DNA of 64,000 nt from an uncultured Clostridia bacterium (GTDB lineage: Bacteria; Bacillota; Clostridia; TANB77; CAG-508). Of this stretch, positions 50,825 to 56,102 are shown in pieces (the stretch's first letter is position 1; each line of letters begins with the position of its first letter). The notes beneath the pieces were generated by a model that worked only from the letters and a program-made list of their open reading frames with translations, did no database searches and was not told where the DNA came from. The stretch is taken from NCBI GenBank assembly GCA_934182605.1, contig CAKPRQ010000002.1, forward strand, positions 44,361-108,360. The letters run 5' to 3'. A program made the position numbers and the translations under genes.

Positions 50825-51925
50825 TTAAATATAATTTATATCATTTTCTTTTCCTTGTGCACTGTCTAAATATTCTTCTAATTTTTTATTAAGTTTTTCT
50901 AAACCTGTAGCTTTATAATATGTTGCTATTGCAAAATTTATAACAGGTCTAACAAATATGTCTTTTTCATTTTTTCTTTCTTTAAATACCAATACATCTT
51001 CACTTTCTAAATCGCTTTTTAGACTTTTTATAAATTTTAAGACTTCATCTTCATGTTCTCCTATAAATGCTATAACAAATTTAGGGCCCATATATCTTAC
51101 AAATATGTATTCTGGTGCCAACCTATTTCTTACAACATTGCTTACAGCGGCAACTAAACTATTTCCTGTTTTTCTGTTATATTTTTCGTTTACTTCCTCT
51201 AAGTTTACAATTTTAAACATACATATTTGTGAAGATATTGCTTTATCTAACCTTAATTTTCCTTCACCATATAAATATTCCGCTGAATTTAAACCTGTAA
51301 ATAAATCTTTTCTTACTAAGCCTTCCATAGTTGTTTGATATGCTATTGTCTTTAATACTGTTATTATGTTTTCTTTGACTATATCTATTATACTTAAATC
51401 TATATTATCAAATGCATGTTTTTCAGCATTTTCTATAATCCAATATCCTATATATACATTATCTATATATAATGGAAAGAATATGGCTGATTTTGCTCTA
51501 CCTACTTCTATTGTTTGATAAGGTAACCTCTCAGAATCGTTTTCAACTGTCATATACTGAGGTGCCCCTCTCATTATAGATTCTTTAAAAATCTCAAGAC
51601 TTTGCAAGTTCTTCATTGTATCCCAATGGCGTTCTGCTACATTTGTAGCCTTTATGATATATTCTGCACCATCAAATACAACTATTGTTGAATATTTTAT
51701 ATTAAATTTTTCTCTTAATTTTGTATTTATTTCTTGTAATTTTACTTCTGCTGTACTATCACTTCCAACAATATTCATAAAATCTTGCAACACATTTAAA
51801 CTATTTATTTTTTGATTTGTATTAGATAGCACTTTTACTTTTTTATTTATACTTAAATTATATACAATTAATCCTATAACTATAATAAACAATACTATAA
51901 TTACTGCTATTAGCAAAGTCTTCAC
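50825..51925 (-). CDS. membrane-anchored protein with a degenerate GGDEF (diguanylate-cyclase-like) domain
   Basis: N-terminal TM helix. A sensor-like region follows. The GGDEF-like region begins RKDLFTGL.N. but has RYMGPKF where the GG(D/E)EF active site (RYGGEEF) should be. It is probably catalytically inactive. 366 aa. Confidence 0.5.
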   Translation of the reverse strand: MKTLLIAVIIVLFIIVIGLIVYNLSINKKVKVLSNTNQKINSLNVLQDFMNIVGSDSTAEVKLQEINTKLREKFNIKYSTIVVFDGAEYIIKATNVAERHWDTMKNLQSLEIFKESIMRGAPQYMTVENDSERLPYQTIEVGRAKSAIFFPLYIDNVYIGYWIIENAEKHAFDNIDLSIIDIVKENIITVLKTIAYQTTMEGLVRKDLFTGLNSAEYLYGEGKLRLDKAISSQICMFKIVNLEEVNEKYNRKTGNSLVAAVSNVVRNRLAPEYIFVRYMGPKFVIAFIGEHEDEVLKFIKSLKSDLESEDVLVFKERKNEKDIFVRPVINFAIATYYKATGLEKLNKKLEEYLDSAQGKENDINYI

Positions 51926-51938
51926 CTCTTTCTAAGTC

Positions 51939-54872: not shown

Positions 54873-55052
54873 TTTTTTCTCTCCCTCATTACTATTTTTT
54901 CTACCTATATATCATACAATATTATTGAAAAAATATCAAGTAATTTTGAAAGAAAATTTGGTTAATTGTGCAATATAATACTTTTATTTATAAATTTCTA
55001 TATTTTAAACATAAAAAAGGTATAAATTAACAATTTACACCTTTTTTATTAC

Positions 55053-56102
55053 TTACTTATTTGTATTATTTCCTTCTGGTAAAGCATTAGTTTGTATAAC
55101 AATTCTAATTCTAAATATTGAAGTAATTGTTTTCATAAATTTGCTGTTTTTAATTCTATCCCATAATCTTGGTTTTACTTCAAAAGTATTTTCTTCTTGG
55201 ATAGCTGTATTTTCTTCTTGAACTTCTGAAATAGAAGTATTTTCTAATAATTGTGATTTAGATGTATTCTTCATTGATTGAATATTATTTGTAATTTTTT
55301 CTACAATATTTTCTTTATTAGTATTTTCTTCAGTTTTAACAGCCTGAATATTTACATTCTCTTCAACAACTTCTTCTTTTTTTACTGTAACTTCCTCAAT
55401 ATTTTCAACTTTCTCTACCTGTTTTTCTGCTTCTTTTAGTTTTTGTTCAGCTACATATTCTTCATAATTTACAGGTATTGGAATTTGTTTTAATGCTTCT
55501 GCTATTTCTATTCCTATATAACTTAAAGCCTTTGAGCGATCTTCTATTCTTTCCATTTCTATTTCTATATGAAGGTTCTTTTCCAAATTATTTATTTTAG
55601 CATTTATTAATTTTACAGCATCATTATAATTATCTGTTTCTGTACTTTTTGCTCTACCAATCATTGATAAAGTATCTATTACATCCTCAGAAAACTTATC
55701 TCTTGCTTCTTCAACTAAATCTTTCCACTTTTCATCTTTTTCTGTAACTAAATCAAATAATTCTTTTAAATCGCTTGCTAAAGAAATATTTTGCTCTCTT
55801 TGTTTAATTAACTCCTCTATCCTTTTTGTATTAACCTCGAATAAATTCGTAGCAAATTCTACTAAATCATATGAAGATTTGTATACACCTACTGGGAAGT
55901 TTTTCTTTTTTGGATACTCGATTAAGTATGTCTTTATAGAATCTATTAAATCCCTAAAGTATGAATCTTCTTCTAATTCAACTATTTGTTTCTTACTTGC
56001 AGGATTTATAAGTCGTTGTACTTTTTCTATGTTAGACAAAATTTTCTCCTCAGTAATTACCATTTTTACATTTACTACTCCGTGTTTTCTAAAAAAAGAC
56101 AT
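55053..56102 (-). CDS. K/E-rich coiled-coil protein (349 aa), first gene of the four-gene locus
   Basis: Long heptad-like charged stretches. SD AAAGGAGGGA lies upstream. No family recognised. Confidence 0.4.
   Translation of the reverse strand: MSFFRKHGVVNVKMVITEEKILSNIEKVQRLINPASKKQIVELEEDSYFRDLIDSIKTYLIEYPKKKNFPVGVYKSSYDLVEFATNLFEVNTKRIEELIKQREQNISLASDLKELFDLVTEKDEKWKDLVEEARDKFSEDVIDTLSMIGRAKSTETDNYNDAVKLINAKINNLEKNLHIEIEMERIEDRSKALSYIGIEIAEALKQIPIPVNYEEYVAEQKLKEAEKQVEKVENIEEVTVKKEEVVEENVNIQAVKTEENTNKENIVEKITNNIQSMKNTSKSQLLENTSISEVQEENTAIQEENTFEVKPRLWDRIKNSKFMKTITSIFRIRIVIQTNALPEGNNTNK

Follow-up and report, generated by a model that had tools for sequence, protein, structure and literature searches.

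TadZ and CpaE are landmark proteins, not known to show measurable hydrolysis, in which an atypical, non-phosphorylatable receiver is followed by a MinD/ParA fold. Proteins of the Noc/RacA type act as nucleoid-to-membrane or pole tethers, and HMGA proteins and Myxococcus CarD combine AT-hooks with an acidic region. TadZ is specific to Tad systems and encoded inside them, and its Walker-A-like consensus, K/RGGXGXS/T, lacks the canonical lysine (bioRxiv 10.64898/2026.07.08.737194); in TANB77 gut Clostridia the Tad cluster has its own short TadZ and CpaE proteins (PMC11680825). The locus considered here lies on a stretch of 64,000 nucleotides (nt), called the window throughout, from an uncultured Clostridia bacterium of the TANB77 lineage (contig CAKPRQ010000002.1), with a GC content of 27%. 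Four minus-strand genes are named in transcription order CC349 (55053..56102; coiled-coil protein), TM151 (54417..54872; small membrane protein), BIG (51939..54413; multidomain protein) and GGDEF* (50825..51925; membrane-anchored protein). Their coordinates, first given in an original prediction made from the letters of the window, proved exact in the open reading frame (ORF) listing, with products of 349, 151, 824 and 366 amino acids (aa). TM151, BIG and GGDEF* are read here, tentatively and with somewhat less than even confidence, as a lineage-specific cell-organisation module in which BIG is a static nucleoid-to-membrane landmark or scaffold.

From its N to its C terminus BIG comprises a pseudo-receiver, a helical bundle, a disordered linker carrying AT-hooks and a repeated LPGF peptide, a pseudo-ATPase domain of the MinD/ParA fold, and a C-terminal helix. 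The AlphaFold2 model of aa 1-235 (mean predicted local distance difference test score, pLDDT, 87.6) has a receiver fold over aa 1-136 (54006..54413, minus strand, as are all features of the locus) and then a five-helix bundle. The bundle, assigned to aa 141-227 (53733..53993) from the secondary structure of the model, contains many invariant residues, is kept in a sister clade described below, and found no match among PDB sequences. When the N-terminal model was searched with Foldseek, CpaE2 was the best match and CpaE the next, both of them atypical receivers, so that the earlier call of a TadZ-like pairing of a receiver with a deviant ATPase is structurally correct. Because of strand positions and invariant residues, the phospho-acceptor site in the model appears to be occupied by E56, an invariant Glu followed by D57; neither a DD pair nor a conserved Lys accompanies it. 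The domain had been described as lacking the phospho-acceptor acidic residues, and it is indeed a pseudo-receiver, but with E56 retained it is not acid-free. BIG thus shares with TadZ and CpaE an atypical N-terminal receiver without a phosphorylatable Asp, placed ahead of a MinD/ParA fold.

Between the two folded ends lies a linker of about 300 residues that cannot be aligned among homologues apart from the hooks, the LPGF array and a further short conserved motif near aa 279-290. The two AT-hooks that had been predicted are borne out: KRGRGRPRK at aa 378-386 (53256..53282; family consensus [PV]KRGRGRPRKNP[VLI], with R-G-R-P invariant) and, 20 residues past it, KRGRGRPKK at aa 398-406 (53196..53222). 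Two RGRP motifs occur in 123 of 128 homologues, in which the flanking K/R residues are invariant, the spacing between hooks is 19-24 residues across the family, and a BIG profile search matched the AT-hooks of yeast Rsc7. The acidic repeats, with the motif [ED]3-D-T-[VI]-L-P-G-F-[ED]-[ED] and a period of about 14 aa, number six as first counted, but only five stand in tandem (aa 420-480, 52974..53156; copies at aa 421-476), one copy lying alone at aa 336 (53397-53408). At the DNA level the array is a 42-nt repeat of 4.4 copies (52932-53115). Copy number among homologues ranges from 0 to 11, most having four to seven LPG[hydrophobic] elements, and the motif itself is kept; 95% of the copies are placed after the AT-hooks. 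The net charge of the linker is blocky, changing from -10 to +12 at the hooks and from there to -18.

A six-frame reading of the 64-kb window shows no further RGRP or LPGF, and since both are unique there and conserved within an otherwise unalignable linker, they are not accidents of composition. Such motifs, kept by selection within disorder, argue for a function. The AT-hooks would be expected to contact the minor groove of AT-rich DNA, and the LPGF peptides would serve as multivalent short linear motifs; their D-T-[VI]-L-P-G-F core loosely recalls D-[IL]-P-x-F, the core of the C-terminal peptide of FtsZ. HMGA and CarD offer the same combination of R-G-R-P hooks having basic flanks with a strongly acidic segment, but the hooks of BIG belong to a linker within a MinD-fold scaffold, and its acidic segment consists of LPGF peptide repeats.

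The model of aa 515-824 (pLDDT 83.5, predicted template modelling score 0.81) has a MinD/ParA (SIMIBI) fold, assigned with high confidence to aa 535-780 (52074..52811), and its structural neighbours include FleN, BcsQ and 3fkq, the last of which we take to be the structure of Eubacterium rectale TadZ. The P-loop, previously called degenerate, was confirmed as such: it reads GTSKSGVS at aa 541-548 (52770..52793). Its register was set by spacing, the 21 residues between S548 and D569 matching the interval T17-D38 of E. coli MinD. Under this register T542, V/T547 and the invariant T571 replace MinD K11, K16 and D40, and what is retained of the nucleotide site is D569 (equivalent to MinD D38) and the Walker-B Asp, D645. 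Residues G541, T542, K544, G546, S548, D569, D645 and D647 are invariant in the C-domain alignment. Among 128 homologues the P-loop is GTSKNGTS in 96 and GTSKSGVS in 16, with GANKSGTT in the sister clade, and in the family-wide form G[TA]xKxG[TV][ST] lysine is absent both from the signature position and from the position preceding the Ser/Thr. All of about 400 family representatives carry other residues in place of the two deviant Walker A lysines and of the hydrolysis-linked switch-I Asp. It is concluded from these alignments that the C-domain is a putative pseudo-ATPase, or at most a nucleotide-binding switch. As for TadZ, whose P-loop also lacks the canonical Walker lysine, a landmark rather than a motor would be expected; BIG, however, has G-T-S-K where the TadZ motif starts with K/R-G-G, and only the final G-x-[ST] is common to the two.

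Sequence comparison by itself does not connect BIG with any of these proteins. Nothing in the Pfam or NCBIfam models matched it, phmmer and three profile searches of PDB sequences assigned no family, hhalign against E. coli MinD returned nothing, and no sequence-level relationship with TadZ/CpaE was detectable. More than 5,900 clusters at 90% identity belong to the family, none with a Pfam domain. An exhaustive hidden Markov model search of 1.84 billion representatives gave just 399 matches, all of them BIG family members, so that in sequence terms the family appears as an island unconnected to the general ParA/MinD superfamily. It nonetheless occurs in no fewer than 589 species-representative genomes, whose labels read uncultured Clostridia, Clostridium, Eubacteriales or Bacillota, the low-GC gut Clostridia that carry it having human, mouse, rabbit, chicken and termite hosts.

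Conservation of the neighbourhood is equally marked. Synteny extends over more than 90 loci. Outside the sister clade the order TM151-BIG-GGDEF*-ireB-ruvX-DUF1292 holds wherever a locus includes enough sequence, in 82 loci down to about 40% BIG identity, and a TM151 homologue immediately precedes BIG nearly everywhere. The position directly upstream of ireB-ruvX, remarked on earlier, has turned out to reflect a conserved partner operon, ireB-ruvX-DUF1292, occupying 49483..50744 in the window (ireB, 50490-50744; ruvX, 50071-50487; DUF1292 gene, 49483-49791), whose members are invariant partners downstream of the module. The proposed four-gene synteny holds for TM151, BIG and GGDEF*, but CC349 is not a conserved neighbour; and ftsEX, which had been taken as part of the setting, is adjacent only in the nearest relative. 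In 58 of 65 main-clade loci a G5/SH3/glucosaminidase gene immediately precedes TM151, and in the main clade DUF1292 is followed by genes for a 159-aa protein, a GTPase and mini-RNase III. IreB/ReoM, a substrate of the PASTA kinase, is a regulator of MurA and of peptidoglycan synthesis (PMC7286690, PMC12077105).

BIG ends in a conserved amphipathic helix (…IGKTLNQMKNQY; 51942..51977), proposed here as a docking peptide, which contains conserved polar residues and has a hydrophobic moment of 0.54 against 0.35 for shuffled sequences, 4.8% of which reach 0.54. A sister clade (loci L087-L089, L092, L094 and L095; proteins P0363, P0370, P0371 and P0392) bears on its origin. BIG-like proteins of this clade retain the pseudo-receiver, beginning MKVLFA…, the helical bundle and the pseudo-MinD domain, and have no AT-hooks, no LPGF motifs and no GGDEF* gene. 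In members such as P0370 and P0371 the linker holds, instead of AT-hooks and LPGF, several hundred residues of ER/K-rich repeats (…AEEERARQEAEAKRQ…) resembling a coiled coil or a single-alpha-helix spacer, and what is conserved may be the spacing of the N- and C-terminal domains and not the sequence of the linker. Sister-clade proteins end in …KTRRGLFG, KKRRGIFG, KPKKFFG or FKLFGK, basic-plus-GLFG tails close to the …KKGFLKRLFGG of E. coli MinD. Gene order there is D,D-carboxypeptidase, TM151 homologue (29-38% identity), BIG-like gene, ireB, ruvX and DUF1292, with spo0A a few kb downstream; the carboxypeptidase gene is directly upstream in all five of the loci that have upstream sequence. A search with the sister-clade C-domain found only 35 proteins, unnamed or fragmentary, and none from a cultured organism. 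Intermediate members lack hooks, have a TLxxMK-type tail and possess GGDEF*. Across the family a TLNxMK tail goes with the presence of GGDEF* in 84 of 84 loci with enough downstream sequence, and a MinD-like tail with its absence in five of five, to which L092 is added from gene calls. The simplest reading of this pattern is that the C-terminal helix came to dock onto GGDEF* in place of binding the membrane directly, so that the membrane-targeting tail of MinD would have been exchanged for TLNQMKNxY in the window's clade.

The third member, TM151, is predicted to begin with a signal peptide or a membrane anchor, to expose an acidic segment outside the cytoplasm and to end in a hairpin of two helices whose cytoplasmic loop carries the conserved sequence IIG..KLD..E.GF. 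No credible family match was found for it in Pfam or NCBIfam, the family members having been checked as well. A faint PF18895 (T4SS_pilin) annotation on the L094 homologue (4577-4996) was not reproduced on six members and was rejected; the topology of the protein, a leader and two hydrophobic helices linked by a short charged loop, is VirB2-like.

The organisation proposed for this module is as follows. BIG would be a landmark in the style of TadZ/CpaE, largely static, that may bind nucleotide without cycling. Its AT-hooks, flanked by acidic blocks, would fasten it to the AT-rich chromosome, and the array of DT[VI]LPGFE[ED] peptides would recruit a client protein multivalently. The ancestral form would have attached to the membrane by itself, with an amphipathic tail like that of MinD; the clade of the window would use GGDEF* as its membrane anchor instead, the TLNQMKNxY helix docking onto it and possibly also onto the cytoplasmic loop of TM151. 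The resulting tether or landmark may feed into spatial control of cell-envelope growth or division, a link suggested by the invariant ireB linkage and the recurrent upstream peptidoglycan enzymes. What the analysis establishes is the folds, the lost motif residues, the conservation, the synteny, the operon signals and the pairing of tail type with GGDEF*; DNA binding, membrane docking, a scaffold function and the envelope link are properties that we infer for the module. Noc/RacA-type proteins resemble BIG in this proposed role only, in that a single protein would hold the chromosome as well as the membrane or a partner in it; BIG has no ParB or helix-turn-helix (HTH) DNA-binding domain and no homology to them. 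A more ambitious form of the proposal would make BIG the representative of a new class of bacterial chromosome-to-membrane organisers: a pseudo-MinD gripping the AT-rich nucleoid with eukaryote-style AT-hooks, with GGDEF* as the evolutionary successor of MinD's own amphipathic anchor, the multivalent LPGF peptides concentrating a division or peptidoglycan-synthesis factor, and, across a large uncultured gut lineage, nucleoid position coupled to IreB-controlled wall synthesis or to septum placement; this is regarded as unlikely.

Several points weigh against the static-landmark reading. The envelope link is guilt by association. The models of the two conserved ends of BIG were built from 25-sequence alignments, and every BIG homologue comes from an uncultured metagenome-assembled genome. 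The Pfam AT_hook model (PF02178) scored 12.3 bits on BIG, below its 17.4-bit cut-off, and since the sister clade has no AT-hooks, DNA tethering was not the ancestral function. The cytoplasmic part of TM151 is, by its predicted topology, only a short loop. The correlation of tail type with GGDEF* is suggestive rather than statistical proof, because it represents one or two evolutionary events in what are essentially two clades. Finally, the lysine at the fourth P-loop position (K544 in BIG) is nearly universal in the family, and this residue could stand in for the missing Walker lysine and so leave an active ATPase cycle possible.

The last point is the starting premise of a different explanation, in which BIG is an active nucleoid-based positioning ATPase of the ParA/MinD kind: with K544 in place of the Walker lysine, DNA-bound, ATP-dependent dimers, helped by the AT-hooks, would form gradients that place a cargo, and the LPGF repeats, or TM151 and GGDEF*, would serve as cargo adaptor or stimulator. 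The fold, assigned with high confidence, is the right one for such an enzyme, a DNA-binding element is predicted in the AT-hooks, and the P-loop is strongly conserved rather than decayed. The equivalents of MinD K11, K16 and D40 are, however, replaced throughout the ~400 representatives, and BIG differs from MinD, FlhG and FleN in its pseudo-receiver and DNA hooks. At the loci themselves, no MinC/MinE, ParB or adaptor partner was found in the conserved neighbourhood, and flagellar partners are likewise not nearby. The closest relatives in architecture are TadZ and CpaE, landmarks that are not known to hydrolyse measurably. A positioning motor of this kind is judged unlikely.

BIG might instead be a true equivalent of TadZ/CpaE that localises a pilus machine encoded elsewhere, either by the type IV pilus cluster of the window or by a Tad cluster. 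The pseudo-receiver with its atypical ATPase, the CpaE2 and CpaE receiver matches and the 3fkq match all point in that direction, as does a PilB/PilT/PilC/prepilin-peptidase cluster at 11.8-20.4 kb of the window. Tad genes are not found nearby, as was claimed from the start, and the type IVa-like cluster is about 31 kb off in the same window. Pilus genes were not found within 5-10 kb of BIG in any of more than 90 loci, and the tad/cpa genes are never beside it, whereas ireB-ruvX is always its neighbour. TadZ, moreover, is Tad-specific and Tad-encoded (bioRxiv 10.64898/2026.07.08.737194), and the Tad cluster of TANB77 has its own TadZ/CpaE (PMC11680825). The helical subdomain, the AT-hook/LPGF linker and the conserved C-terminal helix belong to BIG and not to TadZ/CpaE, and the hooks and repeats in particular have no counterpart in TadZ. 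A pilus-localising role is unlikely.

A role in transcription deserves mention at this point, in which BIG would mainly bind DNA to regulate the downstream ireB operon, or AT-rich promoters in large number, by means of its pseudo-receiver, a helical bundle that may be HTH-like and its AT-hooks, the MinD-like domain mediating oligomerisation or sequestration at the membrane. Some full-length regulators of the NarL/RcsB/EvgA type do align with the N-terminal model across 125-139 residues, AT-hooks are present, and BIG is always upstream of ireB. The family-model and PDB sequence searches, however, gave BIG no HTH family match, and in the sister clade, which has no AT-hook, the N-terminal domains and the position next to ireB are retained. 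A regulator is considered quite improbable.

GGDEF* itself had been regarded as degenerate and as a likely non-catalytic effector binding cyclic di-GMP (c-di-GMP). The protein has one N-terminal transmembrane (TM) helix, a strongly conserved domain of about 150 aa and a GGDEF domain at aa ~205-366; the middle domain (aa ~40-200) has no detectable relatives in PDB profile or PF00990-type searches and appears GAF-like by eye. That the GGDEF domain is genuine is clear from the family profile, which reaches E 4e-9 to 6zxb and matched 39 GGDEF structures in all, and from PF00990, matched by 13 of 13 family members (best E 3e-11), the window protein alone falling below threshold. It is also, to judge from its motif, catalytically dead: R-Y-M-G-P-K-F (aa 277-283; 51077..51097) stands in place of R-x-G-G-[DE]-E-F, with M279, G280, P281, K282 and F283 invariant, and in alignment to a solved GGDEF domain MGPKF falls on GGEEF. 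The Asp residues of the solved IDIDKF segment, taken as metal-binding, align to non-acidic residues, and there is no RxxD I-site five residues before the motif, where the window protein has A-P-E-Y and its relatives S-x-E/D/Q-Y. Degenerate GGDEF domains known to act as c-di-GMP receptors, those of the PelD, PopA and BcsE type, use this I-site. Since both the I-site and the metal-binding Asp are gone, the effector role is without sequence support.

The same residues bear on the idea of a c-di-GMP-responsive module, with GGDEF* as the receptor controlling BIG by analogy with FleQ-FleN or BcsE-BcsQ. Degenerate GGDEF domains paired with MinD-like proteins have precedents, FleN and BcsQ being among the structural neighbours of BIG, and the MshEN domain of the window's PilB indicates that the organism may use c-di-GMP. 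Neither the missing I-site before MGPKF nor the non-acidic IDIDKF positions suits a receptor, however, and the sister clade functions without GGDEF* altogether. BcsQ-BcsE and FleN-FleQ differ, too, in that GGDEF* is membrane-anchored and lacks an I-site, and no cellulose or flagellar genes accompany it; control by c-di-GMP is very unlikely. That unrelated genes have come together here by chance is almost certainly wrong, being refuted by a gene order kept to ~40% identity in at least 84 loci and by the persistence of the core pair with the ireB operon in the much deeper clade. A defence-system, phage or mobile origin, also considered, found no PADLOC match, no meaningful PHROG match and no relative in viral contigs, and was rejected.

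With respect to the layout of the locus, CC349, although adjacent in the window, is a transcription unit of its own and lies outside the conserved module. It is followed immediately past its stop by an intrinsic-terminator-like hairpin (55011..55049; free energy -16.7 kcal/mol, z -7.7, 0 of 200 shuffles equally stable), and a promoter-like site (54911-54939) lies between this hairpin and the ribosome-binding site of TM151, within the 180 nt that separate the two genes. A consensus promoter scan was uninformative in so AT-rich a window, with 53 sites found against 55 expected. Homologues of CC349 were found only in the three nearest loci, in one of which (L001) the gene lies 4.3 kb upstream, past ftsE-like and ftsX genes; by its own terminator and this distribution it was ruled out as a module member. 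TM151 and BIG, said earlier to be separated by a 4-nt gap, are actually 3 nt apart from stop to start, and the BIG ribosome-binding site, GGAGGGG, lies within the 3' end of TM151, which makes translational coupling plausible. The start of GGDEF* is most likely TTG at 51916, which gives 363 aa, as in its homologues; GTG at 51925 is less likely. From TM151 to DUF1292 the gene string showed no terminator-like site on the minus strand, and TM151-BIG-GGDEF* is possibly co-transcribed with ireB-ruvX-DUF1292.

Other features of the window may be noted. The IreB homologue encoded there starts MNNDKTMRF, and its T6 sits where, as we take it, the PASTA-kinase phospho-Thr of IreB/ReoM lies, near the N terminus; the kinase-substrate relationship may hold in the host organism. 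Downstream of ftsE-ftsX, two paralogous EnvC-type proteins with a coiled coil and a LytM (M23) domain, of 431 and 401 aa, are encoded at 45181-47693 (minus strand), and after this pair comes a CtpB-like S41/PDZ protease (43668-44888, minus). Together with ftsE-ftsX these genes appear by sequence to be a complete FtsEX-EnvC-like hydrolase-activation set with the activator duplicated. The type IVa-like pilus cluster (11829-20355, minus) encodes PilC (T2SSF, 449 aa), a PilT-like ATPase of 363 aa, PilB of 542 aa and a prepilin peptidase (A24), as well as four ORFs of 145, 140, 231 and 550 aa without a Pfam match, which could be pilins or alignment proteins. PilB of this cluster has an MshEN domain, and some MshEN domains bind c-di-GMP.

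A TraG/VirD4-like coupling protein of 773 aa (40991-43312, minus) and a Replic_Relax protein of 312 aa (22862-23800, minus) suggest that one or two integrated conjugative elements have left remnants among the housekeeping genes. The ORF in the SecE position before nusG (59395-59802, minus) is 135 aa long, bacterial SecE being usually much shorter; it is extended at both ends, by a lysine-rich stretch ahead of its TM helix and, at the C terminus, by about 60 residues in which Asn, Thr, Glu and Asp are frequent. Two further minus-strand genes, covered by 26711-28369 and 33907-35589, encode a 552-aa protein without any Pfam match and a 560-aa protein, adjoining infC, with AAA-ATPase_like and PDDEXK_9 domains. 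Over positions 1-64000 no Rfam family reached its gathering score and no tRNA was found. The window includes the rplK-rplA-rplJ-rplL and infC regions, in which ribosomal-protein leader RNAs are common, and the leader RNAs of the window may be too AT-rich or divergent for the Rfam models.

In summary, the combination had been thought undescribed, and this view stands: no family model covers it, and literature searches gave no AT-hook/MinD-like fusion and no such module. The folds are known; what is new is the architecture, the genomic partnership, the apparent anchor swap and the occurrence of a TadZ-like protein outside a pilus system. A family present in at least 589 species-level genomes has gone unseen by Pfam, NCBIfam and PDB sequence searches. 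If the static-landmark reading is true, it would represent a TadZ-like landmark working outside pilus systems together with a rare bacterial use of AT-hooks, and an apparently clean swap of membrane anchors, from a MinD-type tail to docking on a membrane-bound pseudoenzyme. The fixed linkage to ireB provides a concrete handle on the organisation of envelope growth or division in these uncultured organisms.

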